Positions 1-33,892 of a DNA stretch of 40,781 nucleotides are shown one piece after another. The position numbers and the translations under genes were made by a program. The DNA lies in assembly GCA_002010065.2 (NCBI GenBank), contig MTMD02000012.1:1-40781 (forward strand). The letters run 5' to 3'. A model generated the notes under the pieces. It was not told the origin of the DNA and ran no database searches. It was given only the letters and a program-made list of their open reading frames with translations. Every line of letters begins with the position of its first letter. The stretch's first letter is position 1. This DNA is from Candidatus Pyrohabitans jungbluthii (GTDB lineage: Archaea; Hydrothermarchaeota; Hydrothermarchaeia; Hydrothermarchaeales; BMS3B).

Positions 1-2
1 GC

Positions 3-1340: not shown

Positions 1341-1370
1341 CGATACTTCTCTGGTTTGCCTGTTGTTACC

Positions 1371-1838: not shown

Positions 1839-2128
1839 CTTAGGAGTTTCTCTGTCTTCTCCTTCAGTTCCTCTGCGGATTCCGGACCCCTCCTTATTGG
1901 AATGTTGTTTCTGATCAGAAGCTCTTTCATCTCCTCATAGGACAGTCTGGCTATCTCAGAAGCCTTCCCCAAGCTGATTTTCCCTTCTCTATAAAGCTCC
2001 ATGGCAACTTTTTCCCGCAGGTCTTTATTTGTCAGCAGAAACAGATCCATCGCTTCATTCAGCAGCTTCTCTCTGTTGTAGCCGAGTTTTGAAATAGCAT
2101 TAAGTATATATTCCACCTCTGTGCTCAT
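1829..2128 (-). CDS. UPF0175-family antitoxin-like protein
   Basis: AMELYREGKISLGKASEIARLSYEEMKELL motif; overlaps the PIN gene; GGTGG RBS before ATG 2128. Confidence 0.85.
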   Translation of the reverse strand: MSTEVEYILNAISKLGYNREKLLNEAMDLFLLTNKDLREKVAMELYREGKISLGKASEIARLSYEEMKELLIRNNIPIRRGPESAEELKEKTEKLLSML

Positions 2129-2185
2129 TCTGATTCCACCACTTAAATTATTATTTATTAACGTAACCATGAAAAAGTAAATTAT

Positions 2186-2312
2186 TCAACCGATTCTCCG
2201 CGTATTGAAGGTGCTGGCTCTACGAACGATGCTATGCACCCTTGCTGAGAAGAAGCTCCGCAAGGTAGCTTCCATCTTGCCCGGTTATGCCGGTGATTAA
2301 TGCTTTTTTCAT
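2186..2312 (-). pseudogene. gmd: Relic of the GDP-mannose 4,6-dehydratase 5' end (copy 2)
   Basis: [25 protein letters not shown], then a frameshift, then [15 protein letters not shown] and a stop. This is the canonical Gmd N-terminus. Confidence 0.9.
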
Positions 2313-2314
2313 TC
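2283..2314. repeat. 32-bp exact direct repeat, copy 2
   Basis: Identical to 1309-1340. Confidence 0.95.
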
Positions 2315-2346
2315 TATCCCTCTTGGTTTCTTACTGGAGAACAATT

Positions 2347-2821
2347 CTATTTCAGAACATCAAGATTCAAATCTCTAAAGAGTTTTACATCAAGATTATA
2401 TTCCGCAGAGAATGGGGTAAGCTTATCGTACAAAGGCTTATCGTTTGTGATCAGGGTGGTACCGTACAGTATAGACGTTATCGCTATAAGGTTGTCAAAA
2501 CCTCCTGCTTAATTTTCACGGCGTAGTCTAGGACTCTTTCTTTTAAATCGGAATCAAAAAGGACGACCTCTGCAGAATCTTCTATCTCCACAGCGGCATC
2601 TTTCCCAAATTCTTCTTTTCCGGTGAGCAGCGATACCACCGATGCAACTTCCACGATTACAACAAAGGGAAGTATCAGTCTATGCTCTCCGGTTATTATA
2701 GCCTCGTAAAGCTCCTTAGCTTTGATATGCAGATCTTCCACTCTTCATGCTTCTTTTTGTTTTTATGCAGAGGTGGAACAAAGGCATAGACCAGCACATT
2801 ACTGTCCAGGGTTATGTCCAT
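2347..2821 (-). pseudogene. PIN/VapC toxin with two frameshifts
   Basis: Three frames join into one PIN domain: MDITLDSNVLVYAF... / ...LILPFVVIVEVASVV... / ...GGFDNLIAITSILYGTTLITNDKPL. Confidence 0.8.
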
Positions 2822-3010
2822 TTAGTATTGCACCTTCAAATGCACCAGGTCATTTCTCGGCTATTTTTCTGTCTCTTTTTTATCTCTAGGCTCTTAATGG
2901 CTTTCAACGCTCCACCTAAATCCCCATAGTTTTCGGTTAATGCTGACGATACCCCAAGCTACCCCCGCCCCAGCCTCTTATCATCCCCCCGTCCCGCATT
3001 CGGGGTCAAT

Positions 3011-3367
3011 TCAGCTGGAGAGGAAAGATTTCACGAAGCTCGGTGAAAGTGAGGAGTACTTCCTCACAGCCTTGATGAACGCCGCTTTTTGAGTGGTAAA
3101 GGTCATGAAGTAATCATCGTCAAAGCCTTCGACTTTTTCGAGTTCTTTGAGGATGAGTCTTATCTGGGCGTCGGAGAGTAGCTTCTCCCCGCGGTAATTC
3201 TTCATCTCCGCCAGCACATTGGCGAAGTAGCCCAGCTTCTTTGCTTTATCCGGGGAGATGTTCTTGATGTATCCGCACTCCCGGCATGCAGGGTGAGGTG
3301 CTATTAAGCCATTGTGCGCGGGTAGGTAGTGCCTCTCATGGGAGTCGCGGTGCTCGCATGCCATCAT
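3011..3367 (-). CDS. Hypothetical protein with a putative Zn site (C-x-H ... HPAC-x2-CG)
   Basis: 118-aa ORF with a CRECG motif; resembles conserved euryarchaeal hypotheticals (from memory). Confidence 0.7.
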   Translation of the reverse strand: MMACEHRDSHERHYLPAHNGLIAPHPACRECGYIKNISPDKAKKLGYFANVLAEMKNYRGEKLLSDAQIRLILKELEKVEGFDDDYFMTFTTQKAAFIKAVRKYSSLSPSFVKSFLSS

Positions 3368-3479
3368 GGTAAAGTTGATGAAGGGGAATATAAGCTTAAC
3401 TCTCCGGGGCGGTGGTTAGCTGCGCGCTCTCCCGGCATGCAGAATGAAGTGGTAAAGAAGGAACTCTTTTTGTCTATAT

Positions 3480-3857
3480 TCAGAGTTTTAGATATTTCTT
3501 TACAGCTTCGATGACAATATCGATTTCCTCCACCACCCTGCCCCTCATTGGTGATTCCTCAAAGACCCATTCTTTTCCCGTCCTTTTTTGAAAATGGTGC
3601 GGGTAGCTATCCAAATTTCTGATTTCGTCAATTTTCTCATGAGGGTAGTCGTCCCAGCCTATAACTCGCTTATCTCCCTCCCAAGGCAGAGTTAAATCAA
3701 CCAGACCATAAGAGTAGCTCCCTGTGGTTGGATCATAGTATATCTCCAGGAAGAGGGTTTCACTCACAAAGGCACGGATTTTCGCTCCCACAACTTTGAC
3801 TTCCAGAAAAATACCGCTCTCTTCCAGCTTCTTCTTAACATCTCTGTACCAAGGCAT
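3480..3857 (-). CDS. DUF6516-like (TumE-like) putative toxin
   Basis: YSYG...VIGWDDYPH...SYPHHF motif; coupled to the upstream small gene. Confidence 0.7.
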   Translation of the reverse strand: MPWYRDVKKKLEESGIFLEVKVVGAKIRAFVSETLFLEIYYDPTTGSYSYGLVDLTLPWEGDKRVIGWDDYPHEKIDEIRNLDSYPHHFQKRTGKEWVFEESPMRGRVVEEIDIVIEAVKKYLKL

Positions 3858-4153
3858 TAAATCGACTCCAGGAGGCGTGCAAGCTCCCTGAGCTCATGTC
3901 TTATCGCCCGCCACTCCAGCAGGTCGTTATATGCCTTGTGGTCTTCGGGAGGTATCCCTTTTTCTTTTATTATGTCTTCTAATTTTTCGAGGGAGCCGTA
4001 TTTCTCTGTGAGTCTTTTTTCTGCCAGCTTTAATTCTACCATTCTCTCGTTTATTTTGGTAATTACTCCTGTTAATACGACATCTTCCTCTGATGATGGG
4101 AGAATTTCCAGAGCCCTTGAGAGTACGCCCTTCACCCTTGCTCCAGTGCCCAT
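3857..4153 (-). CDS. Putative antitoxin partner of the DUF6516-like gene
   Basis: 98-aa helical protein (EKYGSLEKL...DLLEWRA); its stop overlaps the next start. Confidence 0.65.
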   Translation of the reverse strand: MGTGARVKGVLSRALEILPSSEEDVVLTGVITKINERMVELKLAEKRLTEKYGSLEKLEDIIKEKGIPPEDHKAYNDLLEWRAIRHELRELARLLESI

Positions 4154-4275: not shown

Positions 4276-5625
4276 TTAGCATCTACCATACTCGTCTTCC
4301 AAGCGTATTATATCGTCTTCCTCGATGTACTCGCCTGTCTGGATCTCAATCAGGTGAAGGTCAACTTTGCCCGGGTTCTCAAGGCGGTGCACCGTCGACT
4401 TGGGGATGTAGATGCTCTCATTTTCATGGACGTAGTGCTCCTCCTCGCCCTTAATCACCCTCGCGGTGCCCTTCACCACAACCCAGTGCTCCGCTCTGTG
4501 GTGGTGCATCTGCAGCGAGATGCTCTTCCCCGGGTATATGCACAGGCGCTTAACCTTATAGCGCTCTCCCTCCTCGAGAAGGGTGTAGTATCCCCACGGG
4601 CGGTGCACAGTTTTGTGGATAATCGCCTCGCTTCTGCCCTGCTGCTTGAGAAGCTTTGCTATCTCACCCACGCGCTCGCTCATTTCGCGAGAAGCGACGA
4701 GCAGCGCGTCCTTCGTATCCACGATTACCAGGTCCTCTACGCCCAGCGTTGCTACAAGGCGGTCGTCGCCGTAAATCAGGCAGGAGGAGGTATCTATTGC
4801 CAGGACGTCCCCCTTAACAGCATTACCCCTGCGGTCCTTCTTCATTATCGCATAGACGCTCTCCCAGCTTCCTATATCCTGCCATTCGCCGGAGTAGGGC
4901 ACAACCGCGGCACGGGAAGACTTCTCCATTATTGCATAATCGATGGAAATCGCAGGGATAGAGGCGTAGTTTTCAAGCATGGCGGAGTAGCTCTTCATGT
5001 GCTCTGCAATGCTTGGAGCGTGGTGATGAAATTCTTCTATCAGCAGCTCCGGCGAGAATAGGAAGATGCCGGAGTTCCACAGGTAGCCGAGCTTCAGAAA
5101 CTCCTCGGCTTTTTCCCTGCTGGGCTTTTCGATGAAGCGCTCCACCTTATAGCCAACTTCGAGCTTCTCCCCGGGCTTTATGTATCCGTAGCCCGTTGCG
5201 GGAAAGCTTGGCTTTATGCCAAAGGTTACCACGTAGCTAGAGCACAGCCTCTCCGCCTCTTTAACGGTGGTGAAAAATTCACTGCTCAGCACGTGGTCAG
5301 AGGGCATGACCACAAAGCTCTCGTTGCCGTAGTTTTCTTTTATGTAGAGGGCTGCCAGCGCAATTGCCGGGGCGGTGTTTCTGCGCCGGGGCTCGCGTAT
5401 TATCATATTCTCAGGCACAATATCTCTGAGCTCATCCCTCACGTAGAAGAACTGCTCGTTGTTGGTGAGCACCAGAATCTCGCTGAAGTGCTCCCCCGCG
5501 CGCTCCACAGCCTGGCGCAGAAGGCTCTCTTTGCCATTAAGGGCGAGGAACTGCTTCGGATAGAGCTCCCTGCTCAGCGGCCACAGGCGCGTACCTGAGC
5601 CGCCGGCGAGAATTGCACATATCAT
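4276..5625 (-). CDS. manC: Mannose-1-phosphate guanylyltransferase / mannose-6-phosphate isomerase
   Basis: ILAGGSGTRLWPLSRELYPKQF, RNTAPAI, FIEKP, WNSGIF; C-terminal cupin RPWG...SLQMHHHRAEHW. Confidence 0.96.
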   Translation of the reverse strand: MICAILAGGSGTRLWPLSRELYPKQFLALNGKESLLRQAVERAGEHFSEILVLTNNEQFFYVRDELRDIVPENMIIREPRRRNTAPAIALAALYIKENYGNESFVVMPSDHVLSSEFFTTVKEAERLCSSYVVTFGIKPSFPATGYGYIKPGEKLEVGYKVERFIEKPSREKAEEFLKLGYLWNSGIFLFSPELLIEEFHHHAPSIAEHMKSYSAMLENYASIPAISIDYAIMEKSSRAAVVPYSGEWQDIGSWESVYAIMKKDRRGNAVKGDVLAIDTSSCLIYGDDRLVATLGVEDLVIVDTKDALLVASREMSERVGEIAKLLKQQGRSEAIIHKTVHRPWGYYTLLEEGERYKVKRLCIYPGKSISLQMHHHRAEHWVVVKGTARVIKGEEEHYVHENESIYIPKSTVHRLENPGKVDLHLIEIQTGEYIEEDDIIRLEDEYGRC

Positions 5626-5693
5626 TGCACTCACCACCCATAGTTTATTTTAAAGGGTTAATAAATACTGCGATGCCCTCCCCGATTAGTTTT

Positions 5694-6902
5694 TCATTTC
5701 CTTCCATTCTCCTCTATGTAGTGGGCGAAGAAGGCTGCAAAAACGCCAACGAAGAGGCCGAGCACGCCAGCTACGGCGATATTGAGAAGCCTGTTGGGTC
5801 CCACAGGACTGCGGGGCTCCACCGCCTTTTCAACAATGCGCAGCGACTTCAGCTGCTCCTCCTTGGCGATTCTCGCCTCCTGGAGCTTCTGGGAGAGGAA
5901 GGAGTAGGTATCCTCCAGGGTTTTTATATCCCTGTCAAGCTGCTGGAGGGTGGTCTTAATCTCCTGCAGCTTTGCCTCCTTCTCGTCGATCTCCTTCTTA
6001 AGCTGGGCGGTCTCCTCCTCCAGGTAGGCGACGGAGGCGCGGAGGGTTTTCACAGAGACGCGAATATCTGCGAGGTAGTCTTCAAGGGAGAGGTAAACCT
6101 TGTTCTCAATTGCAATCTGCAGCAGTATTGACTCGTCCAGCTTTGAAGATGTGCTCCTGCCGGAAAGCTCCTTCTCTAGGGCGGAAAGCTTCTCCTCCTG
6201 GGCTGCGAGCGTAGCGCTTTTATTGTGAAGCTGTGAGAGCTGGTTCTTGTACACCGCGGTAAGCGCTGCGAGCTCACTCTCGAGGGTTGTGGTGGGGTTT
6301 GCCTTGATCAGCTCAAGCCTCTGCTGCTCCTTCTCCTTCAGTTCTTCACTGACCTCCTCATAGCGAGCGGCGATAAACTCGTAGCTCTGGGCTGTGCTCG
6401 AGGCAAAGAGGTCTGCGTTCTTCTCTATAAAAATCTCTGCCCAGGTGTCAGCTATTGCTTTGATAGTCGCTGGATCGCTGCCCCTAACCTTCATTGTTAG
6501 CAGCACCGTCTTTGCCTGGGTGGGAGATGCTCTCTTATCTTTAAAAATCTCCAGCTTTGGCTCCATTTGCCTTCTCAGCGCCTCAGGGGGAAGGGGTCTG
6601 CCATCGGCACTCTTAAGGTCCAGCCTGTCTATAATCTCCACTAGGAGGTCGTTGCTGAGGGCGAGTTTTTCGTATATCGCCGGGGTGAAGAGGGTGGATT
6701 CACCAGCTTTTTCGCCCAGCATCTCGGATATGGGCGGAGAGATTAAAACGCTTGTGGTGGTTTCATACTGATTCTGGAGCATGAAGAAGGAGAATATCGC
6801 AGAGGAGAAAACAGCTGCTAAGAATACCGCAATAACAATGTGCTTCTTTTTCCAGAGCACTTCCAGGTAATCCCGCAAATCAATCTCGTACTCCTCCTCC
6901 AT
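5694..6902 (-). CDS. Wzz/GumC-type polysaccharide chain-length determinant (co-polymerase)
   Basis: EIDLRDYLEVLWKKK plus TM1, a long coiled coil, then a Pro-rich PRSPVGPNRLLNIAVAGVLGLFVG TM2. Confidence 0.88.
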   Translation of the reverse strand: MEEEYEIDLRDYLEVLWKKKHIVIAVFLAAVFSSAIFSFFMLQNQYETTTSVLISPPISEMLGEKAGESTLFTPAIYEKLALSNDLLVEIIDRLDLKSADGRPLPPEALRRQMEPKLEIFKDKRASPTQAKTVLLTMKVRGSDPATIKAIADTWAEIFIEKNADLFASSTAQSYEFIAARYEEVSEELKEKEQQRLELIKANPTTTLESELAALTAVYKNQLSQLHNKSATLAAQEEKLSALEKELSGRSTSSKLDESILLQIAIENKVYLSLEDYLADIRVSVKTLRASVAYLEEETAQLKKEIDEKEAKLQEIKTTLQQLDRDIKTLEDTYSFLSQKLQEARIAKEEQLKSLRIVEKAVEPRSPVGPNRLLNIAVAGVLGLFVGVFAAFFAHYIEENGRK

Positions 6903-13961: not shown

Positions 13962-14432
13962 ATGGCAACAGCGGATAAGAAACTTAAGATGGTTATCTAC
14001 TATATTGTAAGGGAAATGAATAGATTAGGTTATCACCTTAACAGAACAAAGCTAGTGAAACTTCTTTTCATCATTGATTATATAGCAAAAAAGGGAAGGA
14101 GAATGAGAATAGGCAGGACTATTACAGGCATAAAATATCATTATTATCATTACGGGCCATTCTCCAGAAAGATACCTAGTGCGATACAGGACATGCAAGG
14201 AAAGGAGATTATTGAAAGAGATATTGGTAATCCTTTGGACTTTGCCTCCTATTATGTGTATACTCCTGGAAACATGCCACGCTTCGAGCCAGAATTTGAA
14301 GACAGGGAAAAAGAGATTATTGATTTCGTCATAAAAGAATATGGGCCTTACCCATTGGATTCAATTTTGAAAGTTGTTTATAATCTTCCTGAAATGAGAG
14401 AAGCAAAGCCTCTAGACATAGTTTTGGAGTGA
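13962..14432 (+). CDS. Panacea (DUF4065/SocA-like) antitoxin-domain protein
   Basis: RTKLVKLLFIID...ITGIKY...YGPFS...EKEIIDFVIKEYG; AT-rich. Confidence 0.85.
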   Translation: MATADKKLKMVIYYIVREMNRLGYHLNRTKLVKLLFIIDYIAKKGRRMRIGRTITGIKYHYYHYGPFSRKIPSAIQDMQGKEIIERDIGNPLDFASYYVYTPGNMPRFEPEFEDREKEIIDFVIKEYGPYPLDSILKVVYNLPEMREAKPLDIVLE

Positions 14433-14442
14433 GGGGCAGAGG

Positions 14443-15597
14443 GTGGAATTTGAATCTTCGCCATCAACGTTTGAGGACCTTAAAAATTATTTGTTGAATA
14501 ATAAGTTAATGAAGTTAGAAAATGGTCGATTTAGGATTTCTGACGAAGAAAAACTCAAAGAGTTAGGATTCGGGATATTTCTCTCTTTTTTCTATAGCAA
14601 TATGCCCCCGAGGAGAACTTGGCAATTTATCAAACTTGATAAAAATCATGTGCTCTTTTTAGTACGTGAAGAAAAATTTTTACCAAAGATAAGTGAGTTA
14701 AAATTTATAAAGAATCCTTTTAATGGTATTCCAACAGGGGGTTTGAATTGTAATTTATGTCCAATAAAATACTGGATGCTTTACAATCTCTGCACACTTG
14801 AGACCGACAATGACATTAAAAATGATATAGCCATCGAAATAAATGGACTCCTTAGTGGAAGTAAGGAAAAGTGTCATGAATGCAAAAAAGATATAATAAA
14901 ATGGTTGAAAGAAAAGATAAAAACTAATGGGGTTTATGGGAGTGTATTAGGTGGCAATACATATCTGCTGAATGTAGATTCTAAATTCTTCGAATTTTTT
15001 TATTCACCTGATCCTGAAGGCATAGAATCTTACGATGTAAGTTCAGAGATAGGTGATGAGGTCGATCTAGAAAAACCTACATTAAGAAAACCGAGAACCG
15101 AGACAGCTAGAGAATATAAAGACCCTACTGAAATTTTGTTTAATTCCTTCGTTGTTATGTATATTGCATGTAAAACAGGATGTTCGGTAATTGGAGTAAA
15201 TGCCAGAATGATAAAACCATTTGAAGCTCATGAAATGGATGGTTATCTTTGGGATCCTGAAAATAAAAGGCTCATTGTGATAGAAACATCTCGGGAAATA
15301 AAAATCAATAAGAATCATCTGAAGCGCAAAATATACAATTCTGCACTAATGAACATGGTTGACCATTCAACTTACAATTATCTCTATATCACTTTTGGAA
15401 ATAAAAGCAAAGATTTCACGGAAAATGTAGGACATGTAAGACTAGTCGAAAATTTAGAAAAGAAATATAATGTCCCATTTGCTATAATTGACCTCCCTAA
15501 AAAATATCACAAAGCACGAGAAAAATTTGACCCAAAACTCCTAAAAGAAATCTATAACCATTATATAACATCTATTGAAAGGTTACTAAAATTGTAA
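14443..15597 (+). CDS. Hypothetical protein, two CxxC pairs plus a C-terminal PD-(D/E)XK-like segment; candidate toxin
   Basis: 384-aa AT-rich ORF; CNLC, CHEC; HEMDGYLWDPENKRLIVIETS. Confidence 0.6.
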   Translation: MEFESSPSTFEDLKNYLLNNKLMKLENGRFRISDEEKLKELGFGIFLSFFYSNMPPRRTWQFIKLDKNHVLFLVREEKFLPKISELKFIKNPFNGIPTGGLNCNLCPIKYWMLYNLCTLETDNDIKNDIAIEINGLLSGSKEKCHECKKDIIKWLKEKIKTNGVYGSVLGGNTYLLNVDSKFFEFFYSPDPEGIESYDVSSEIGDEVDLEKPTLRKPRTETAREYKDPTEILFNSFVVMYIACKTGCSVIGVNARMIKPFEAHEMDGYLWDPENKRLIVIETSREIKINKNHLKRKIYNSALMNMVDHSTYNYLYITFGNKSKDFTENVGHVRLVENLEKKYNVPFAIIDLPKKYHKAREKFDPKLLKEIYNHYITSIERLLKL

Positions 15598-15599
15598 AA

Positions 15600-15850
15600 G
15601 TGGACTACACCTATTGAAAAGACGATGGCAGAATCAGCTTCAACCACATGTTCGTATCAAGTATCTTTCGTAGCCAGCAGATTCTCGCCTCCGTGAGGCT
15701 TCAGGCAACATCAGTCACCCTACCACTCTAGGTCCTTCTTCTGAAGCTCTAAGGAAAGTATGCTTCTCTCGAAACTCACTCAGTCCGCTCGCCCAGCTCA
15801 TTCTCGGCTTTTTCTGCATTTGAGAAGGATGTGATGAGTCAGGTGGCATA
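15600..15850 (-). pseudogene. Decayed DUF2281-like antitoxin plus PIN toxin start
   Basis: Fragments SWASGLSEFREKHT/LELQKKDLEW*GD and ILDTNMWLKLIL, with frameshift and stops. Confidence 0.55.
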
Positions 15851-15882
15851 ATGTTTTTAACCCCCTGCATTAAGCTAATCTC

Positions 15883-18507
15883 ATGCCTGAGATAACACCC
15901 ATGATGCGCCAGTGGCACCGCTTCAAGCGGGAGTACAGCGATGCGATAATCTTCTTTCGCGCCGGTGACTTCTACGAGATGTTCCACGAGGACGCTGTGC
16001 TTGCTGCGAGGGAACTGGGCATCACATTAACATCTCGAGGCAGGGAGAGAGGCAAGCCCGTGCCCCTGGCGGGCGTACCCTACCATGCAATGGAGACCTA
16101 CCTGGCAAAACTTGTGAGGAAGGGTTATAAAGTTGCAATATGCGAGCAGGTTGAAGACCCAAAGCAGGCGAAGGGCGTGGTAAAGCGAGAGGTTGTTCGC
16201 GTTGTTACGCCTGGCACGCTGATGGAGGAGAGCCTGCTGGAGGAGAAGAGCAACAACTACCTGGCGGCGCTTCTCGTAGATAAAAGCGGCGCTGGAATTG
16301 CATATGCTGACCTTTCTACAGGGGAGTTCGCATGTGGTGAGTTCTCTGGGGAAGAGGCGGTGGAGGAAGCGTTGAACCAGCTGGTTGCAATCTCGCCAGC
16401 AGAGTGCCTGATTCCCGAGAGCATAAGCGAAGAGCTGGTGGAGAAGCTCGGCAAGCTGCTCCGGGACACCTTTTTCAACCGCGTAGGCGACTCAAGCTTC
16501 AGCTACTCCTCAGCCAGAGAAACCCTCGTCCAGCACTTCGGTGTGGCAAGCCTTGAAGGCTTTGGTGTCGCTGAGCTATCGCTTGGCGTAGCTGCCGCCG
16601 GAGCGGTGCTGGGCTACCTGCGGGAGACCCAGAAGAGTGCGCTGCCCCATATAACAAAGCTGCGCAGGTTGGCGATGCAGGAGCACATGCTTCTGGACGC
16701 AGCCACGCTCCGCCACCTGGAAATAACGCGCAACCTGCGCGATGGCTCCACAAAGGGCACTCTGCTAGAGGTGCTGGACGCGACGACGACTGCGATGGGG
16801 GCGAGGCTTCTCAAGCGCTGGCTTCTCCATCCCCTGACCAATGTTAATAAAATAAGGCGACGCCTCGACGCTGTGGAGGAGCTCTACAACGACTACCTTC
16901 TGCGCGAGGAGCTTCGCGAGGCTCTGAGCAAGGTTTACGATTTGGAAAGGCTTAACAGCAGAATTGCAAGTGGCTCTGCTAATGCTCGCGACTTGGTTGC
17001 GCTCAAAAATTCCCTCAGGGCGGTGCCGGAGATACGCGAGCTGCTATCCCAGAGCAAGAGCGAGCTGCTTAATGAAATAGTGGCGGAGATGCATGCCCTG
17101 GAGGATTTGGTAGAGAAGATAGAGCTTGCTATAGTGGACGAGCCTCCGGCGAGCGTGAGAGAAGGCGGGATAATAAAGCCCGGCTACAGCGAGGAGCTGG
17201 ACAGGCTTAGAGAGGCAGCCACGCAGGGTAAGCGCTGGATCGCCGAGCTGGAGCAGCGGGAGAGGCGAAGAACAGGCATCGCCTCCCTCAAAGTTGGGTA
17301 CAACAGCGTCTTCGGGTACTACATCCAGGTGACAAAGCCCAACCTTCACCTTGTACCCAAGGACTACATACGCAAGCAAACCTTAGCCAACGCGGAGCGC
17401 TTCGTCACGCCCGAGCTAAAGGAGAAGGAAGCCCTCATTCTCGGTGCGGAGGAGCGGGCGGCTAAGCTTGAGTACGAGCTTTTCACCCAGCTACGGGAGG
17501 AAGCCGCCTCCCGGGTGAAGGAAGTTCAGAGCACCGCCCATGCTCTCGCTAAGCTGGATGTGCTCCTGAGCTTTGCGAAGGTCGCCAGCGAAAGGGGCTA
17601 CGTTAAGCCAAGCGTCGACGAGGGAGAGGTAATTGAGATTAAGGAAGGTCGCCACCCCGTTGTAGAGGCTTATCAGCGTGAGTTTGTGCCCAACGACGCC
17701 TACCTCGACTCGGCGAAGGAGCAGATTTTAATCATCACAGGACCAAACATGGCGGGCAAATCAACGTACCTGCGCCAAGTGGCGCTAATTGTGCTTCTAG
17801 CCCAGGTGGGAAGCTTCGTTCCAGCGAAAGAGGCGAGGGTAGGCGTGGTGGACAGGATATTCACCCGAGTTGGTGCTAGCGACGACCTAGCTACTGGACG
17901 GAGCACCTTCATGGTAGAGATGCAGGAGGCGGCGAATATCTTAAACAACGCAACGCAGAGAAGCCTTGTCATTCTGGATGAGATAGGGCGGGGCACGAGC
18001 ACCTTCGATGGGCTCAGCATCGCCTGGGCTGTGGTGGAGTATATACACGAGCGCGTCAAGGCAAAGACGCTCTTCGCCACGCACTACCACCACCTCACTG
18101 AGCTTGAGCAACTCCTGCCTAGGGTTAAAAACTACCACATCGCCGTTAAAGAGCAGGGCAACGACATAATCTTCCTGCGCAAAATAATGCCCGGCTCTAT
18201 AGACAAGAGCTATGGCATCCACGTGGCACGACTTGCGGGCTTGCCCAGAGAGGTTATAGAGAATGCTTCGCAGGTGCTTCGCCGTCTGGAAGAGGAGGAG
18301 GTGGCAGATGACAAGGTCATAGCCAAGCGCCTGCGCAAGCGCAAGCTTGCGAAGGTTTTCGCTGACCAGGCGCAGCGTACCCTCTTCGAGAGCTTCGCAG
18401 CAAAGCCCTCGCCTGTAGAGGAGGAGCTGCGCAGGTTAAACCCCAACGAGATGACACCCCTCCAGGCGCTGGAAACGCTGTTCAAGCTTAAGGAGATGCT
18501 GCGCTAG
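15883..18507 (+). CDS. mutS: DNA mismatch repair protein MutS (MutS1)
   Basis: TPMMRQ, GDFYEMF (mismatch-binding Phe-X-Glu), TGPNMAGKST, STFMVEM, DEIGRGTST, FATHYH, SYGIHVA. Confidence 0.97.
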   Translation: MPEITPMMRQWHRFKREYSDAIIFFRAGDFYEMFHEDAVLAARELGITLTSRGRERGKPVPLAGVPYHAMETYLAKLVRKGYKVAICEQVEDPKQAKGVVKREVVRVVTPGTLMEESLLEEKSNNYLAALLVDKSGAGIAYADLSTGEFACGEFSGEEAVEEALNQLVAISPAECLIPESISEELVEKLGKLLRDTFFNRVGDSSFSYSSARETLVQHFGVASLEGFGVAELSLGVAAAGAVLGYLRETQKSALPHITKLRRLAMQEHMLLDAATLRHLEITRNLRDGSTKGTLLEVLDATTTAMGARLLKRWLLHPLTNVNKIRRRLDAVEELYNDYLLREELREALSKVYDLERLNSRIASGSANARDLVALKNSLRAVPEIRELLSQSKSELLNEIVAEMHALEDLVEKIELAIVDEPPASVREGGIIKPGYSEELDRLREAATQGKRWIAELEQRERRRTGIASLKVGYNSVFGYYIQVTKPNLHLVPKDYIRKQTLANAERFVTPELKEKEALILGAEERAAKLEYELFTQLREEAASRVKEVQSTAHALAKLDVLLSFAKVASERGYVKPSVDEGEVIEIKEGRHPVVEAYQREFVPNDAYLDSAKEQILIITGPNMAGKSTYLRQVALIVLLAQVGSFVPAKEARVGVVDRIFTRVGASDDLATGRSTFMVEMQEAANILNNATQRSLVILDEIGRGTSTFDGLSIAWAVVEYIHERVKAKTLFATHYHHLTELEQLLPRVKNYHIAVKEQGNDIIFLRKIMPGSIDKSYGIHVARLAGLPREVIENASQVLRRLEEEEVADDKVIAKRLRKRKLAKVFADQAQRTLFESFAAKPSPVEEELRRLNPNEMTPLQALETLFKLKEMLR

Positions 18508-20485: not shown

Positions 20486-21430
20486 TTAAATCTCTTTTGT
20501 CCCTCTCTGCTCGAGGGCTTTAACTATTTCCGCTATTGTTTCATTAACGGGTGTGGCGATCCCCAGCTTTTTCCCGAGGCTCACAATAGCCCCATTCAGG
20601 TAGTCGATTTCCGTCCTCTTCCCCCTCTCTATGTCCTGGAGCATGGAGCTTATGTGACTCACTGTGGGGGGAAGCAGCTTCTCAAGGAGGTGCGTATAGT
20701 ACTCCTCCCATGTGAATTTGAGATGGATCCCCAGAGCATTAGCAACCTCAAAAGCTTCCCTGAGCATGGCACGCATTAGCTTGCGCGTCTCCGGCATCTC
20801 TCCAAGCTTGCCGTAGGGCACGCGAAGGATAGCAGAGAGAGGGTTGAGAGCTATGTTGTAGAATGCCTTCATCCACTTCTCCCTTATTATGTCGTCGCTC
20901 GCCTTTGTTGGTATCCCTGCATGGGTAAAGGCGGAGGCTATCTCCTTCGCTCTGGGCGTAGCTCCTCCCTCCAGGTCACCCACCAGGCATTCGCTTGCAT
21001 ATACCGTCACCTCGGCACAGCCCGGCTCCAGAAGCCTCGCGCCGAATATCGCCATGCCCCCCATTGTGCGTTGCTTTCCAACGACACTTGCTATTAGCTC
21101 CTCGTTGCCGATGCCGTTCTGCATCGACATCACTGCGGTGCCCTCTTTGACAAGAGGCAGAACTTCCTTTACGGCGCTGGCGGTGTCGTAGGACTTTGTG
21201 GTTATCATGATGAGGTCGAAGGACGCGTGCTCTGGAATCTGTTCAACCGATGTAAACGCAGCGAGGCGCGTGAAGATGTGCTCACCCCATATACCCGTTA
21301 TGGTTAATCCCCTCTCATTTATCGCTTTGATGTGCTCCCTTCTACCGATTAATGTAACGCTGTTATCGCGGGATAAGAAGCCGCCGAACACCGAGCCCAT
21401 TGCTCCAGCGCCGAAGATGAGGATGTTCAT
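20486..21430 (-). CDS. panE: 2-dehydropantoate 2-reductase
   Basis: GAGAMG, TKSYD, QNGIG, SSMLQD, TEIDYLNG. Confidence 0.94.
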   Translation of the reverse strand: MNILIFGAGAMGSVFGGFLSRDNSVTLIGRREHIKAINERGLTITGIWGEHIFTRLAAFTSVEQIPEHASFDLIMITTKSYDTASAVKEVLPLVKEGTAVMSMQNGIGNEELIASVVGKQRTMGGMAIFGARLLEPGCAEVTVYASECLVGDLEGGATPRAKEIASAFTHAGIPTKASDDIIREKWMKAFYNIALNPLSAILRVPYGKLGEMPETRKLMRAMLREAFEVANALGIHLKFTWEEYYTHLLEKLLPPTVSHISSMLQDIERGKRTEIDYLNGAIVSLGKKLGIATPVNETIAEIVKALEQRGTKEI

Positions 21431-21440
21431 GGCTCAGCAC

Positions 21441-22805
21441 CTAATTCCTGTGCCCGTGGATCGGCGACGGTATTCTGCCGCCGCGCTTTACGAATGCCTC
21501 GCAGGAGCGCTCGCTTACTGGCATGACATAGGCATAGCCCAGCAGGCCGCCAAGCTCTATGCGCTCCCCCTCTCTGCCCGCGAGGAGCACCCTAACGCCT
21601 GTGGTTTTGTTGTTCATAACCCCTATCGCAGCTTCGTCTGCGATTAAGCCAGCGACGGTGCTTGCGCTGGTCTTCGCAGGAAGCACCACCATGTCCAAGC
21701 CCACGCTGCAAACGCTGGTCATGGCCAGAAGTTTATCCACTGTCACCGCGCCCTCGCGTGCTGCCTCTGCCATGCCTGCGTCCTCGCTCACTGGTATGAA
21801 GGCTCCGCTCAGCCCGCCCACGTAGCTTGTCGCCATGGTTCCGCCCTTCTTCACCGCATCCACGAGCAGAGCGAGCGCAGCCACGCTTCCAGGTGCGCCG
21901 CACCGCTCTATTCCCATCGCCTCTATTATCTTCGCCACGCTGTCGCCCGGGAATGGCGTCGGCGCCAGGGAGAGGTCAACTATACCGAAGCTCACACTTA
22001 ATCTCTTGCTCAGTTCCCTGCCAATAAGCTCTCCCACGCGGGTTATCTTGAAGGCAGTGCGCTTGATAACCTCCGCAACCTCCCCAAGGCTCGCCTCGCT
22101 GTGCTTCTCCAGCACCGCTCTGACTACGCCGGGGCCTGAGATACCCACATTCAGTGCCGCCTCACCCTCACCCTCGCCGTGGAATGCACCCGCCATGAAG
22201 GGGTTATCTCCAGGCGCATTCGCGAATGTGACCAGACGCGCGCAATTCATGTAGTCAAGCTCTGACGCACGTTTAACCACCTGCCCCATTCTCAGCACAG
22301 CGTCCATGTTAATACCTGCCCGCGTCGAGGCGACATTAACTGAGCTGCACACCCTCTGCGTGGAGTTCAGCGCCTGGGGTATAGCATCTATAAGCGCCTC
22401 GTCGCCGCGGGTAAAGCCCTTCTCCACCAGTGCTGAGAAGCCGCCTATGAAGTCCACATTTAGCTTCTCCGCCGCGCGCTCTAAGGCGAGAGCTGCGCGC
22501 ACCGCCGCTTCTTTCGCCTCCTCCTCGCCAAGCTCCCGCACCGCTGGCGAGATAATGTTTGCTACAGGTGTAACAGCCACACGCTTGTTAACTATAGGGA
22601 TGCTGTACTTTTCCTCTAAGGCCTGAGCCTCGCTTACCAGGCGTTCGCCAACGCTGAGAAGCTTCTCCTCAATTCGCTCGCAGGTTTCGTCTATATCGCT
22701 GGAGGCGCAGTCTTTAAGGCTCACCCCCAGCGTGACGGTGCGAATGTCAAGACGCTCCACAAGTATCATGCGAAGCGTCTCAAGAATCTCCTCCCTATCG
22801 AGCAT
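21441..22805 (-). CDS. UPF0210/DUF711 (PFL-like) protein
   Basis: LDIRTVTLG, DNPFMAGAFHG, GGLSGAFIPVSED, VCSVGLDM. Confidence 0.92.
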   Translation of the reverse strand: MLDREEILETLRMILVERLDIRTVTLGVSLKDCASSDIDETCERIEEKLLSVGERLVSEAQALEEKYSIPIVNKRVAVTPVANIISPAVRELGEEEAKEAAVRAALALERAAEKLNVDFIGGFSALVEKGFTRGDEALIDAIPQALNSTQRVCSSVNVASTRAGINMDAVLRMGQVVKRASELDYMNCARLVTFANAPGDNPFMAGAFHGEGEGEAALNVGISGPGVVRAVLEKHSEASLGEVAEVIKRTAFKITRVGELIGRELSKRLSVSFGIVDLSLAPTPFPGDSVAKIIEAMGIERCGAPGSVAALALLVDAVKKGGTMATSYVGGLSGAFIPVSEDAGMAEAAREGAVTVDKLLAMTSVCSVGLDMVVLPAKTSASTVAGLIADEAAIGVMNNKTTGVRVLLAGREGERIELGGLLGYAYVMPVSERSCEAFVKRGGRIPSPIHGHRN

Positions 22806-22814
22806 GCCCTCACC

Positions 22815-23087
22815 TTAAATACGGTGCATGTAGCGGAATATGTCCTCGTGCTGGGCGATTATCTTAACGCGCTGCTCCTCCGCTACGCGCTCAAGGCGGC
22901 GCTGAAGCTCGCGAAGCTCTTTGCCGGTTATGTCCACGATGAGCGTCATTGTCAGCAAGCCCTGCACAACCGTCTGGCTTAGGTCTTCTATGTTTATCCC
23001 CAGCTCAGCGCACGCGCTGGTAACGGCGGCTATAATGCCGGGATGATCCTCGCCGATAACCGTAATAACGGCGCGCTCCTTCTTCAT
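22815..23087 (-). CDS. ACT-domain protein (UPF0237)
   Basis: AVITVIGEDHPGIIA...QHEDIFRYMHRI; the usual partner of DUF711. Confidence 0.92.
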   Translation of the reverse strand: MKKERAVITVIGEDHPGIIAAVTSACAELGINIEDLSQTVVQGLLTMTLIVDITGKELRELQRRLERVAEEQRVKIIAQHEDIFRYMHRI

Positions 23088-23185
23088 GCTCTGCGTATTG
23101 GCGGGAGACGTATTTATATTTGGCGCTATCCGCAAACATAGCAGGCGGTAAGCTTTTATGTGGTATGCAAAGCTTAGATAAGAGT

Positions 23186-27515: not shown

Positions 27516-27530
27516 CTCCCTTAAAGGGAG
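27516..27530. terminator. Short hairpin between convergent genes
   Basis: ctccc-ttaaa-gggag. Confidence 0.35.
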
Positions 27531-28129
27531 GTTATCTCCTCGTACCTCTTTTCAAGAATCGGCTTGTGAATCTCGTTGGGCTTGCCGTAGTGGCAGCGTT
27601 CGCACTTTGCCTTGTGTATCTTTATGTAGTTGCCATCGAAGTGGCAGAGCTGGCACACCAGCACATCTCCGGGACGTTTCTCAGGTACGCGGAAGTCACC
27701 CTCCTTTGTCATGTGGCAGGTCTGGCACATAGTTACGCCGAGGTCTTCGATCTTCTTTTCGTGGATCTTGTGGATCTTCTCGCCGTGGCAGGTGGTGCAG
27801 ATTCTGGGCTCAACACCCTTCGCCTCGTCCACCTTCATGAGCTTGGCAATCTGATGGAAGGTCGAAACATCACCGTGGCAGTCGGCACAGTTTATCTCAG
27901 TCACAACCTTCGTGGGTGCTGGCGCCTCGCCCACCGGCGGCTTTTCCTCCTTTGCAGATGCAAGCTCAGCCTTTAGCTTATTAAGCTCAGCCTCAAGGCT
28001 CGCGATCTGCTTATCCTTTTTCTGGATCTGCTGCGTGTAGGTGGTGGATACGTTCCCCACGTAGATCAGTGTCCCTACCAGAGCAATGGCTAAAACCGCA
28101 ATAATAATTCCCGTTACCTTGCTCGCCAT
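27521..28129 (-). CDS. Membrane-anchored pentaheme cytochrome c
   Basis: N-terminal TM, coiled coil, five CxxCH (CADCH, CTTCH, CQTCH, CQLCH, CERCH). Confidence 0.9.
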   Translation of the reverse strand: MASKVTGIIIAVLAIALVGTLIYVGNVSTTYTQQIQKKDKQIASLEAELNKLKAELASAKEEKPPVGEAPAPTKVVTEINCADCHGDVSTFHQIAKLMKVDEAKGVEPRICTTCHGEKIHKIHEKKIEDLGVTMCQTCHMTKEGDFRVPEKRPGDVLVCQLCHFDGNYIKIHKAKCERCHYGKPNEIHKPILEKRYEEITSL

Positions 28130-29187: not shown

Positions 29188-30546
29188 ATGAAGGTTGCTC
29201 GCATACTTATCGCTGGCGAAAGGAGCGGCGTGGGCAAGAGCACAGTTGTTACAGGAATAATTCGCGCTCTTGCGGATGCAGGCATGAAGATCCAGCCCTT
29301 CAAGGTTGGTCCGGACTACATAGACCCCAGCCACCACACCATGGCGATTGGCGAGCCTTCAAGGAATCTGGACACCTGGCTTATGGGCGAACGCGGCGTG
29401 GTGGAGTCCTTCCTTCTAGGCTCAAAGGGCAAAGACCTGGCGGTTATAGAGGGTGCGATGGGGCTGTACGACGGCTTTTCAGGGAGCTACGAGGGCAGCA
29501 GTGCGCACATAGCGAAGCTTACCTCTACGCCAGTGGTGCTGGTGGTGAATGCTTCGAAAATCGCTGGCAGCATAGCAGCGCTCGTAAGCGGCTACAAAAG
29601 CTTCGACCCCGAGCTTAGCTTCGCTGGCGTTATTCTTAATGGCGTTGGAAGCGAGAGCCACGCAAGGATGCTGGGCGAGGCGATTGAGAGCAGGACAGGT
29701 TTACCCCTCCTGGGCTGGCTGCCGAAGAGCAGCGAGATAGAAATTCCCGAGCGCCACCTTGGCTTAATCCCCGCCGCGGAACGGCAAGAGGAGGAGGTTT
29801 ACCTCAAGCTGGCGGAGTTTGTGAGGGAGCATGTGGATCTTGAGGCGATTCTACGTGCCGCGAGAGATGCGCCGCCCCTGCCTGAGCCGCCGGCAGAGGA
29901 GGAGAAGGAGCCCACGGTTAGAGTGGGGGTCGCTCTCGATAAAGCTTTCAGCTTCTACTACTGGGAGAACTTTGAGCTTATGCGCAGGGAGGGTGCTGAG
30001 GTGGTGTTCTTTTCGCCTATAGCTGATGACACTCTCCCTGACGTGGATGGGCTCTACATAGGCGGTGGCTTCCCGGAGGTTTACGCTTCAGAGATAGCGC
30101 AGAACAGGAAGCTGATGAGGGAGATAAGGAAGAAGAGCGAGGAGGGCATGCCAATCTATGCGGAATGCGGTGGGATGATGTACCTGACCAGAGAGCTCCT
30201 CGACCTGGAAGGCAATGCGTATGAGATGACAGGCATTTTTGATGCCGTGGTTGAGATGACGCCAAAGCTTCAGGCTGTGAGGTACACCCTGGCGAGGGCT
30301 GCACGAAATACGCCCTTCTTTTGCGAGGGAGATGTTTTGAAGGGGCATGAGTTCCACTATTCAAGAATCGCCGACTTTGCCAGCGATATCTCTTTTGCTT
30401 ACTCGCTGCAACGTGGCATGGGCATCGCAGACCACCGCGACGGCTTCATAAGCAACGCCACGCTGGCGAGCTATATGCACCTGCACTTCGCGGGGAGCAG
30501 GGATTTTCTGAAGAGCTTCATAGCTGCATGTGCAGCATCGCGCTAG
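29188..30546 (+). CDS. cbiA: Cobyrinate a,c-diamide synthase family (CbiA/CobB, or CfbB)
   Basis: SGVGKS, FKVGPDYIDP, IEGAMGLYDG, ERHLGL, AECGG, GHEFHY. Confidence 0.88.
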   Translation: MKVARILIAGERSGVGKSTVVTGIIRALADAGMKIQPFKVGPDYIDPSHHTMAIGEPSRNLDTWLMGERGVVESFLLGSKGKDLAVIEGAMGLYDGFSGSYEGSSAHIAKLTSTPVVLVVNASKIAGSIAALVSGYKSFDPELSFAGVILNGVGSESHARMLGEAIESRTGLPLLGWLPKSSEIEIPERHLGLIPAAERQEEEVYLKLAEFVREHVDLEAILRAARDAPPLPEPPAEEEKEPTVRVGVALDKAFSFYYWENFELMRREGAEVVFFSPIADDTLPDVDGLYIGGGFPEVYASEIAQNRKLMREIRKKSEEGMPIYAECGGMMYLTRELLDLEGNAYEMTGIFDAVVEMTPKLQAVRYTLARAARNTPFFCEGDVLKGHEFHYSRIADFASDISFAYSLQRGMGIADHRDGFISNATLASYMHLHFAGSRDFLKSFIAACAASR

Positions 30547-31253
30547 GCGAGCAGCTTCTTAAGTACGCCTATGGTAAGGCGGTGGTACGCCCGTTTAGGG
30601 AAAATTTCCACCCTTCCCGAGCCCAGCATGCCGAGGGCGAAGATGTCGCCCAGCACATCTCCAGCCACATGAGGGAGCGTTTCTCTTGAGTAGCCCCGCA
30701 GGTAGGGTGTTGGCGCCATCGCCACGCGGAGCTTCTCCTCCTCGCTGGCCTCTTCCAGCACAAACTCATACTCGGCGCTGCGGTGAGCAACGTAGATTTC
30801 GACGTTCTCGCTGGGAAGCACGCGGATCTCACCCTCAGGGAGGCTAAGCGTTACCTCCCTCTCAATCCTGCGCAGCTCGCCGGGTAGCTTTTCAGCGCCG
30901 GCCTCCTTAAGTTTGAGGTATAGCCTCTCATCCAGCTTGCCCGAGGCGCTGCCGATGACGGCATAGGGTGGCTGTCCTTCTCGCTTGGCGTCGCGGAAAC
31001 TCTGTCTGCTGAGCTCATAGGCGCTGCTCAGCCCGGTGATGCTTGCGCAGGTGATACCAGCTAAGTAAAGGCAGCCCAGGGCGTGCTCCACCAGGTAGGC
31101 CTTTTTTCCCCCAGCGGCGAGGTCAACGCGGATATCGAAGCGGGAGACGTTGCTTACATCAGCTTCTATGCCGTTGACACTCAGCTTCTCTGCCGGCGAA
31201 ACGCGGAGGTAGTCCACCTCCACCTCCCGCGAAAGTGTAGCTCGCGAAAGCAT
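30543..31253 (-). CDS. LpxC-like Zn-dependent deacetylase homolog
   Basis: VEHALGCLYLAGI, HVAGDVLGD and YHRL are collinear with the LpxC motifs VEHL..AL.GLGI, HK.LD.IGD and GHAL. Confidence 0.72.
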   Translation of the reverse strand: MLSRATLSREVEVDYLRVSPAEKLSVNGIEADVSNVSRFDIRVDLAAGGKKAYLVEHALGCLYLAGITCASITGLSSAYELSRQSFRDAKREGQPPYAVIGSASGKLDERLYLKLKEAGAEKLPGELRRIEREVTLSLPEGEIRVLPSENVEIYVAHRSAEYEFVLEEASEEEKLRVAMAPTPYLRGYSRETLPHVAGDVLGDIFALGMLGSGRVEIFPKRAYHRLTIGVLKKLLA

Positions 31254-31304
31254 GCTGTTACCTCTTACCAAAGCTTTTTATTTTCTTGCTTCGAGTTACC
31301 TGCG

Positions 31305-32681: not shown

Positions 32682-32983
32682 TTACTCGATGAACTCTACT
32701 TCTATCTCCAGCTTCTGTGCGATATCGCTCTGCTTTTTATCGCTGGTTAAAAGCCTGCCGTATTTCTGAGCCTGAGCTATATATAACGCATCGTATATAG
32801 AAACTTTTTCCTCAACAGAAATTTTCTGAGCTGGGCTTATATATTTCCCAAGAGACTCAAATACAATAATTTCCTGAGCTTCTTTTAAAGCATTGAACAT
32901 AAGTAAAGCGTCTTCAAGGGATATTTTACCATAAACTGAGTGATGTTTCCATACAGCATTAGAAACCTCAGCCAGAGGCGTAT
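32682..32983 (-). pseudogene. N-terminally truncated PIN/VapC toxin
   Basis: LAEVSNAVWK...SIYDALYIAQA...LLTSDKKQ; lacks the first VD motif and an antitoxin; AT-rich. Confidence 0.75.
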
Positions 32984-33892
32984 TTAAAGCCCCTCCAGAA
33001 ACTCCTCCACCTCTTGCTTTGTGGGCAAACCAGCGCGCGCACCCACGTGGGAGATGCACTTCGCGGCGACGAAGTTGCCCAGCTTTCCGCAGGTCTCCAG
33101 GTCGTAACCTTTAAGCAAGCCGTAGAGGAAGCCCGCGGCAAAGGCGTCGCCGGCGCCGGTGGTGTCCACCACGCTTGTTTTAAACGCTGGCACGCGGAGC
33201 CTCTCCCTATCGCTGGCTATGAAGCAGCCCTCCTCGCCGAGGGTTACCACCACGATTCTCGCCCCCATATAGAGAAGCATCTCCGCCCCGCGCTCGTATT
33301 CGTTGCCGGTGAGGTGGAAGGCCTCTTCTTTGTTGAGAAATATCACCTCGCTGGCTGAGATGAACTCCTTGAGCTCCACCAGACAGCGCTCCTTGGCGTA
33401 GAGCATCCCAGGGGCAAAGCTCAGCTTCTGCTTTTTAAGCTTCGCCAGCAGTGCGCGCTGAGCTTCGAAGCCGTACTCGCCGACGAAGGAAGAGAAGTGC
33501 AGGTACTTAGCGCGCGAAGCGTAGGCGATGCTCTTTTCGGTGAGCTTCAGCAGGTCATTCGCCCCGGGATAGGCGTACATGCTTCGCTCGCCCTTCTCAT
33601 CCACCAGCGCTATTATTATTCCCGTGGGCGCATCCAGGCGCTCTATTGCGCTCGTATCCACGCCCTCGCGCCGCAGCTCGGCTATTAGGAAATCGCCATC
33701 GCTGTCTCTGCCCACTGCGCCTATAAAGCCCGTGCTCACACCTAGCCTCGCAAGACCCACGATGGTGTTTGCCGCACTCCCTCCGGCTGCCTGCGTAGCC
33801 TCTATTACAAAAACCTCCTCCCCGGGCTTAGCTATGCGAGGCACGCGGTAGATTTTGTCTAGGTTGAGGGCGCCCACGCCGACTACATCCAT
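32984..33892 (-). CDS. PfkB-family carbohydrate/nucleoside kinase
   Basis: GGSAAN, VDTTGAGDAF. Confidence 0.93.
   Translation of the reverse strand: MDVVGVGALNLDKIYRVPRIAKPGEEVFVIEATQAAGGSAANTIVGLARLGVSTGFIGAVGRDSDGDFLIAELRREGVDTSAIERLDAPTGIIIALVDEKGERSMYAYPGANDLLKLTEKSIAYASRAKYLHFSSFVGEYGFEAQRALLAKLKKQKLSFAPGMLYAKERCLVELKEFISASEVIFLNKEEAFHLTGNEYERGAEMLLYMGARIVVVTLGEEGCFIASDRERLRVPAFKTSVVDTTGAGDAFAAGFLYGLLKGYDLETCGKLGNFVAAKCISHVGARAGLPTKQEVEEFLEGL

Follow-up and report, generated by a model that had tools for sequence, protein, structure and literature searches.

An insert-less archaeal branch of the LpxC fold, unrelated to lipid A and possibly linked to coenzyme A precursors

The stretch of DNA analysed here (the window, 40,781 nucleotides) is the whole of contig C12 (MTMD02000012.1) of Candidatus Pyrohabitans jungbluthii, an archaeon of the Hydrothermarchaeota with a 1.99-Mb genome in 15 contigs (99.95% complete, 1.84% contamination). 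On its minus strand, at 30543..31253 with the stop codon included, lies a gene for a protein of 236 residues, P0001, which a sequence-only reading had aligned by eye with LpxC, the deacetylase of lipid A synthesis. Translation and the alignment of homologues agree on the reading frame, and the ATG at 31253 is the likely initiator. A longer version starting from TTG at 31271 was considered and is unlikely, because all close homologues have Met-Leu in common at the ATG position, a Shine-Dalgarno-like GAGGT (31260-31264) precedes the ATG by 6 nt, and an A/T-rich box (31274-31285) lies about 25 nt upstream of the start. These elements belong to a 51-bp divergent intergenic region (31254..31304), read from the sequence and probably serving as promoter, that P0001 shares with a class I fumarase alpha gene starting at 31305 on the plus strand. 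At the other end, the stop codon overlaps, within CTAG, the stop of a convergent gene of cobyrinate a,c-diamide synthase type (29188-30546). Orthologues in the same genus are 96, 74 and 73% identical to P0001, with ratios of nonsynonymous to synonymous substitution (dN/dS) of 0.10-0.22. P0001 is thus a real gene under purifying selection.

As a single sequence, P0001 matches the Pfam LpxC model over residues 26-72 only, with E 3.4e-4 and a score of 20.7 bits where the cut-off is 27, and LpxC chains of the PDB at E 0.33. It has no match in NCBIfam, and a PF03331 scan of the whole genome returned nothing at E <= 1. A family alignment was built from 35 full-length members, leaving out P0004 (shorter at the N-terminus), P0030 and P0038-P0043 (fragments or weak matches) and P0044. 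The profile derived from it aligns with Aquifex LpxC in three collinear segments (E 1.8e-11), and LpxC accounts for 28 of the 30 sequences that were reported from the PDB at E <= 1. Comparison of the family with E. coli LpxC by hhalign gave 85% probability (E 6e-6), and 19 of the 35 members individually match Pfam LpxC at E <= 0.01, the best at 8.8e-9. The AlphaFold2 (AF2) model of P0001 computed from the 35-row alignment has pLDDT 97.8 and pTM 0.94; with a 5-sequence alignment pLDDT was 35 only. Foldseek retrieved 54 PDB matches at E <= 0.001 for this model. Among the matches listed these are LpxC throughout, with E-values from 2.8e-13 to 1.4e-10 and TM scores of 0.71-0.76 normalised to the query. 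Since profile, hhalign, AF2 and Foldseek results agree, the alignment made by eye is correct, and the LpxC fold that it had proposed is confirmed by structure comparison. Homology to LpxC goes beyond chance, though it is visible only at the level of profiles and predicted structures. The family of P0001 should be filed within the LpxC superfamily as a separate family.

Seven columns are invariant in 35/35 rows: E56, H57, G101, H195, D199, D203 and H224. According to hhalign, E56, H57, H195, D199, D203 and H224 correspond to E78, H79, H238, D242, D246 and H265 of E. coli LpxC. All codons in question lie on the minus strand. Those of Glu56-His57 (31083..31088), aligned with the EH motif of both the Aquifex and E. 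coli enzymes, encode the counterparts of the general base and the first zinc ligand. The HxxxDxxxD motif (30645..30671) comprises His195 and Asp199, equivalents of zinc ligands, together with Asp203, and inside it Val196 replaces E. coli Lys239. Alignment and conservation place His224 in the pair Tyr223-His224 (30582..30587), where YH stands for the GH of LpxC; this tyrosine is family-specific and kept in 34/35. Thr182 (30708..30710) is the hhalign equivalent of E. coli Thr191, and this column holds Thr or Ser in all 35 rows.

Residues 183-194 (30672..30707) form a short linker at the position where, in the hhalign alignment, LpxC has the hydrophobic acyl passage of Insert II. T182 is separated from H195 by 12 residues, and E. 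coli T191 from H238 by 46 (192-237), a difference of about 34. The tunnel residues of E. coli LpxC, which according to section 16 of PMC10254716 include M195, I198, F212 and V217, fall into the missing stretch and so have no counterpart in P0001. The same section names K143, D160, F161, K239 and K262 as residues binding uridine diphosphate (UDP); their respective counterparts in the alignment, which is of low confidence in the middle of the protein, are a gap, A156, H157, V196 and a column without conservation. Conversely, the family has an insertion of 21 residues (81-101; 30951..31013) after the strand behind the EH helix, seen as a gap in the hhalign alignment with E. coli LpxC. It carries Arg83 (34/35), Ala89 (33/35) and the invariant Gly101, and residues 84-91 are helical in the AF2 model. 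The sequence-only reading had described equivalents of Glu78, His79, His238, Asp242 and His265, a largely deleted Insert II, a valine in place of Lys239 and an extra stretch after the EH helix. All of these hold in the full alignment.

Residues that are conserved and peculiar to the family occur in all three clades of its tree: R42-V43-D44, an aromatic residue at 79 (Trp, Tyr or Phe in 35/35), R83, R87, A89, P147, Y223 and T227 (R42 34/35, D44 33/35, T227 33/35). We define the archaeal minimal LpxC-like family by a length of 230-300 residues, RVD before EH, an insertion with Arg83 and Ala89, a (T/S)x(12-14)H linker, and YH for GH; P0001 has every one of these features. Since the signature of the active-site region is the same in all three clades, cautious transfer of function between clades is allowed. 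Three conserved arginines around the shrunken site suggest a small anionic substrate.

The family is small, previously unnamed and almost exclusively archaeal. When 1.84 billion cluster representatives were searched exhaustively with the profile, 40 proteins scored at E <= 1e-3, 33 of them at E <= 1e-10. One, P0044 (884 residues, E 2.4e-4), was rejected as a false positive, being an fn3-repeat protein; fused forms are therefore absent from the exhaustive search. Canonical LpxC was not found at E <= 1e-3 by the family profile among these representatives, so the gene is no recent transfer. A word-index search retrieved four close relatives from the single sequence; repeated with the alignment it gave six proteins at E <= 0.001, of which only P0025 lies beyond the query and those four. 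A search for loci related to P0025 found none in genome contigs, and one for P0016 led to locus L049. Named members come from Hydrothermarchaeota, Odinarchaeia, Promethearchaeota, Njordarchaeum guaymaensis, "Bathyarchaeota" and one metagenome-assembled genome of a Desulfocucumaceae bacterium; nearly all are archaeal and every one is labelled "hypothetical protein". The nearest protein-atlas cluster (101 members, 74% archaeal) bears the same label. PADLOC defence libraries gave no match for P0001, P0010, P0025 or two of the M20-like partners described below, and among the papers listed for LpxC homologues, the LpxC fold and archaea, including Asgard lineages and Hydrothermarchaeota, none was found to describe this family.

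Distribution is rare and patchy. The family gene occurs in 9/61 relatives of the window's genome, including same-genus genomes (4/4) and one other taxonomic family of the order (2/2). It is further present in 2/2 genomes of a very small phylum, in 8/301 sampled genomes of the phylum of G049 (confined to three taxonomic families, with 4/4, 1/1 and 3/3) and in 4/154 genomes of the order of G362. A tree of 45 rows displays three clades, A, B and C. P0001 belongs to clade B (support 98/91), and the Asgard-type clade C accounts for 28 of the rows.

The host is archaeal, as the sequence-only reading had assumed. P0001 has its nearest relatives in proteins that bear the names Candidatus Pyrohabitans sp., placed in Hydrothermarchaeota, and "Euryarchaeota archaeon"; the contig shows synteny with three genomes of the same genus and carries an archaeal Hjc resolvase and DUF530, and the genome holds the archaeal pair of pantoate kinase (PoK) and phosphopantothenate synthetase (PPS). 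Signatures of LpxB and KdtA, the C-terminal domain of LpxA and the N-terminal domain of LpxD were not found in this 99.95%-complete genome, nor was that of LpxK beyond P-loop noise at E >= 0.01; controls were positive in the expected Gram-negative genomes each time. P0001 has no part in lipid A. That it is a real gene with an LpxC fold and an intact active site, unrelated to lipid A, can be stated with high confidence.

Gene neighbourhoods were examined in selected lineages of the three clades. PoK and PPS are linked with the family gene in clade C, and no such linkage was found in clade B. In group f24 (G049, G061, G084), genes for an M20-like protein, a protein resembling the S-component of ECF transporters (Pfam E 1.9e-4, below cut-off), the LpxC-like protein, a 76-residue AsnC-type ligand-binding protein and a PoK homologue follow each other on one strand. 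The last is a GHMP kinase that matches the NCBIfam pantoate kinase model at E 7e-52, below cut-off, and is the only strong PoK match of the genome. In G069, M20-like, LpxC-like and PoK-like genes abut or overlap, the LpxC-like stop overlapping the PoK-like start. A 12-kb region of G362 (WJJB01000185.1) contains genes for PPS, Amidohydro_3, M20-like and LpxC-like proteins, aRF1, an FAH-family protein, PoK-like protein, pyridoxal phosphate (PLP) decarboxylase, PanE/ApbA reductase and glutamate dehydrogenase. PPS is located 3 kb to one side of the family gene, and PoK, decarboxylase and PanE/ApbA 2-4 kb to the other. G513 has L-aspartate oxidase (NadB), LpxC-like protein, aRF1, FAH, PoK-like protein and decarboxylase, with the latter two 2-3 kb away. 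PPS divergently adjoins the M20-like/LpxC-like pair in G515 and G514. In a Njordarchaeum-like lineage (G072/G083), an M20-like partner and NadB are adjacent and a PoK-PPS-PanE cluster lies about 25 kb away.

In total, PoK and/or PPS are found within 5 kb of the family gene in 6/7 clade-C lineages, whereas a single-copy PoK or PPS would be expected there by chance in about 1% of cases per genome (genomes of 1.4-5 Mb). Because these lineages are related, this count overstates independence. The honest reading is that PoK/PPS linkage represents one or few ancient arrangements, kept down to about 30% identity of the LpxC-like proteins; this preservation in turn argues for functional coupling.

Five Asgard-type lineages have, directly upstream of the family gene, a gene for a protein of 350-470 residues distantly related to M20/ArgE-DapE deacylases (L014 10893-11942, L027 10408-11637, L028 10421-11602, L030 3761-5047, L049 5007-6107, L055 8521-9930, L056 8780-9925). 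Its best match to NCBIfam TIGR01910 has E 1.7e-15, and most of these proteins have no Pfam match. An alignment of nine sequences contains no conserved His, Asp or Glu, so the protein looks non-catalytic and is probably not an enzyme. No counterpart was detected in the P. jungbluthii genome by tblastn at 1e-3, and a hidden Markov model of the partner gave a single weak match there, a generic M20 gene of contig C10 (E 1.6e-5).

P0001 is best read as a minimal zinc amidohydrolase of the LpxC fold that is catalytically competent, would act on a small anionic substrate and probably has a link with coenzyme A (CoA) precursors; this is the explanation we favour, tentatively and with somewhat less than even confidence. 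By homology with LpxC, His57, His195 and Asp199 would hold Zn2+ and Glu56 would activate the zinc-bound water, while His224, backed by Asp203, and Thr182 would stabilise the oxyanion and protonate the leaving amine. Arg42-Val43-Asp44, the aromatic residue 79, Arg83, Arg87 and Tyr223 would stand in for the acyl tunnel and UDP site. Such a set suggests a small, polar amide, probably bearing a carboxylate. From the linkage in clade C, the most likely physiological role would be to provide the building blocks of 4'-phosphopantothenate, pantoate and/or beta-alanine, and thereby to feed CoA synthesis. A link with CoA precursors is likely for the Asgard-type clade; for the Hydrothermarchaeota protein it is possible, at a confidence well below that.

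The most parsimonious reaction would be hydrolysis of the amide bond in pantothenate or in a close relative, e.g. pantetheine. According to PMC6650551, archaea replace pantothenate synthetase and pantothenate kinase (PS/PanK) by PoK/PPS, and PanK is unused in most archaeal pathways. Since archaea phosphorylate pantoate and not pantothenate, imported pantothenate would have to be split first. Archaea with PoK and PPS and no pantothenate kinase could thus salvage the vitamin by splitting pantothenate and rebuilding it, and an amidase of this kind would explain the neighbours on both sides as well as the transporter-like gene of f24. Hydrolysis of pantothenate itself is our preferred guess, on thin and partly contrary evidence, and taken on its own it is unlikely. 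Equally doubtful is the wider proposal of an archaeal salvage route that the family would open, either as the pantothenate amidohydrolase that has long been sought or as a near equivalent with pantetheine or a pantoyl amide as substrate; in Asgard-type lineages the enzyme would then work with the non-catalytic M20-like partner.

Several observations weigh against the link with CoA precursors. Relatedness of the clade-C lineages means that their linkage may descend from one ancestral arrangement. The salvage scheme requires PPS, which was not found in f24 (0/4: G049, G061, G073, G084) or G069, precisely the places where PoK adjoins the family gene (search with PF02006, at E <= 1 in four of the five PPS-less genomes). 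In the phylum of G049, PPS is present in 261/301 genomes, yet it is missing in 5/8 genomes with the LpxC-like gene versus 35/293 without; the five represent two lineages only, and their lack of PPS likewise speaks against simple salvage. Among the relatives of the window's genome there is no phyletic signal: ketopantoate hydroxymethyltransferase (PanB) occurs in 1/9 positive versus 12/52 negative genomes and PanE in 5/9 versus 18/52. In the genus of P. jungbluthii, the family gene stands by itself, with a convergent gene (a,c-diamide synthase or ArsA-type ATPase) on one side and the divergent fumarase on the other, in surroundings that also include a multihaem cytochrome; the one exception to the lack of a CoA context is the single PanE/ApbA gene of the P. 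jungbluthii genome, 9 kb away. Other clade-B neighbours are a PRC-barrel protein overlapping the family-gene start and a helix-turn-helix protein (G018/G026), or unknown open reading frames (ORFs) and divergent NurA/HerA (G043), and PoK and PPS of G000, G018 and G043 sit on other contigs. The only clade-A context, a 5.5-kb metagenome contig reached from P0037, has an SPFH protein, two unknown proteins and no CoA gene. Finally, NadB adjoins the family gene in two lineages, the Njordarchaeum-like one and G513 (L027 7449-9035, L028 7393-8988, L030 746-2338, L054 7788-9380). Together with the fumarase beside P0001 this may indicate an aspartate/fumarate theme, and these neighbours fit an aspartate-related substrate at least equally well.

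Such a substrate is the core of the strongest alternative, in which the clade of P0001 hydrolyses another small anionic amide with no relation to CoA, e.g. N-acyl or N-carbamoyl aspartate or another dicarboxylate, releasing aspartate, and PoK/PPS linkage is a peculiarity of clade C. No CoA gene lies beside the family gene in any clade-B context, R42, R83 and R87 would suit a dicarboxylate, and a PLP decarboxylase of aspartate/glutamate decarboxylase type is near in G362 and G513, in addition to the NadB genes and to the fumarase paired divergently with the family gene across 51 bp. However, the fumarase pairing is limited to one genus and thus counts as one event, NadB of the Njordarchaeum-like lineage is convergent and not co-transcribed, and PoK/PPS linkage is commoner than any aspartate-related one. 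One active-site signature across all clades also argues for one substrate class. We consider this alternative rather unlikely, if by no means negligible. The sequence-only reading had arrived at an active zinc hydrolase with a different, non-acylated substrate, and this is the natural reading, because the catalytic set is invariant, the fold is that of LpxC, the acyl-tunnel insert is lost and there is no lipid A pathway. Its further suggestions, a UDP-N-acetyl sugar as substrate and a glycan or glycolipid pathway, are not supported. De-N-acetylation of such a sugar or of another N-acetylglucosamine (GlcNAc) conjugate, for an undescribed archaeal pathway, would agree with the sole characterised members of the fold, which act on a GlcNAc derivative; Thr182 and aromatic 79 could contact a sugar, and the window holds GDP-mannose pyrophosphorylase and a Wzz-type protein, though 24 kb off. 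But UDP-contact residues are not kept (K143, D160, F161, K239 and K262, with the mid-protein alignment uncertain), and no glycosyltransferase or sugar-nucleotide gene adjoins a family member in the independent neighbourhoods examined, where the recurrent neighbours in the Asgard-type clade are CoA-precursor genes instead. A GlcNAc de-N-acetylase therefore seems very unlikely.

Less probable still is re-use of the zinc site for non-hydrolytic carbonyl chemistry, for instance a hydroxymethylation of 2-oxoisovalerate resembling that of class II aldolases, by which the family would replace PanB. PanB was indeed not found in G000-G004, G018, G043, G361, G049, G061, G069, G072 and G083, while PanE/ApbA is present in G000, G072, G043 and G069 and both PoK and PPS in G000, G072 and G043; in G362 the family gene clusters with PanE, PoK and PPS. 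The idea is weakened because PanE without PanB is common in genomes lacking the family (group f8: PanE 5/6, PanB 0/6, LpxC-like gene 0/6) and because two genomes, G026 and G362, carry both PanB and the family gene. Moreover, f24 has the family gene and no PanE, and the hydrolytic residues of LpxC are all kept, His-Asp pair included. Descent from a transferred bacterial lpxC, as a remnant that is decaying or no longer catalytic, would account for the patchy distribution (9/61 relatives, 8/301 and 4/154 in the two other groups) and for the loss of much of the ancestor's substrate site. It is nevertheless the least credible of these explanations and can practically be set aside, given dN/dS of 0.10-0.22, six catalytic residues invariant across sequences 22-35% identical and a confidently predicted fold.

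Several other features of the window and its relatives deserve mention. The a,c-diamide synthase-type gene (cobyrinate/Ni-sirohydrochlorin type; CbiA and GATase_3; plus strand) that separates the LpxC-like gene from that of the ArsA-type ATPase is found at that spot in the window and in L018 and is absent there in L017 and L019 of the same genus. At 27521-28129 (minus) a protein of 202 residues is encoded in which a hydrophobic stretch at the N-terminus and a linker resembling a coiled coil are accompanied by five CxxCH haem motifs, counted by eye; it matches Pfam Cytochrome_C7 at E 2.5e-9 and is conserved in the genus. A PIN-domain ORF (32682-33059, minus) overlaps with its upstream part the 3' end of a PfkB kinase gene (32984-33892); in L018 the PIN-domain ORF occurs twice, as copies or fragments. 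An apparent operon at 20486-23135 (minus) consists of genes for an ACT-domain protein (22815-23135), DUF711 (21441-22805) and, 10 nt after the latter, PanE/ApbA (20486-21430), the only one of the genome at the threshold used and 9 kb from the P0001 gene. Since PanB was not found in the window's genome, association with the sole PanE/ApbA makes the DUF711/ACT pair a candidate that might take part in pantoate synthesis. Genes for GDP-mannose pyrophosphorylase/mannose-6-phosphate isomerase and then a chain-length-determinant-type protein (Wzz/GNVR) lie at 4276-6902 (minus), 24 kb from the P0001 gene and unlinked with it. A full-length, five-domain MutS of bacterial MutS1 type is encoded at 15883-18507 (plus) of this archaeal contig. 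GC content is low at 14001-16000 (36.6%) and 1-4000 (42-45%) compared with about 55% elsewhere; such stretches may be foreign DNA, and an ORF in the former (14443-15597) has no Pfam match. In f24 and G069, outside the window, a PoK-like gene is kept but PPS was not found.

LpxC, the fold of which is called unique in a review (PMC6281622), has been treated as a one-function fold. A catalytically intact, insert-less branch in archaea that lack lipid A shows that other chemistry is possible on this fold, and it offers a natural minimal scaffold to study what the inserts of LpxC contribute. Should the PoK/PPS linkage be functional, the family would provide a missing piece of how archaea obtain or salvage CoA precursors and might include the gene for an orphan enzyme activity. 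If the pantothenate proposal were true, the LpxC fold, so far credited with lipid A synthesis alone, would have a further role in cofactor metabolism, either older than the first or parallel to it.

Three known systems invite comparison. Pantothenase (EC 3.5.1.22, an activity of Pseudomonas fluorescens), the protein and gene of which are unidentified (PMC10393543), hydrolyses an amide to pantoate and beta-alanine, the substrates of PoK and PPS, and this is the reaction proposed here. The likeness is one of reaction, since no sequence is known for EC 3.5.1.22, and what supports it from the side of the family is PoK/PPS linkage in clade C. M20 deacylases (ArgE/DapE/LysK) are similar in activity, being zinc-dependent hydrolases of small N-acyl amino acids, but their fold is unrelated to that of LpxC. 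Differences from LpxC itself (EC 3.5.1.108; PF03331; Aquifex aeolicus 1P42, E. coli 4MDT) are considerable. Identity is about 17%, P0001 has 236 residues versus 305, the family has no Insert II or UDP-contact lysines and adds the 21-residue insertion with conserved arginines, the archaeal host has no other lpx genes and gene neighbours differ. Four LpxC features tested are thus missing from P0001: a score above threshold, the acyl passage, the UDP residues and the pathway context. Nevertheless, both have in common the two-domain beta-alpha-alpha-beta fold, the EH and HxxxDxxxD...H motifs that provide zinc ligands, general base and His-Asp pair, and the equivalent of Thr191. The family also has a hairpin that aligns with the Aquifex LpxC residues just before the EH motif, which we take to be Insert I of LpxC.

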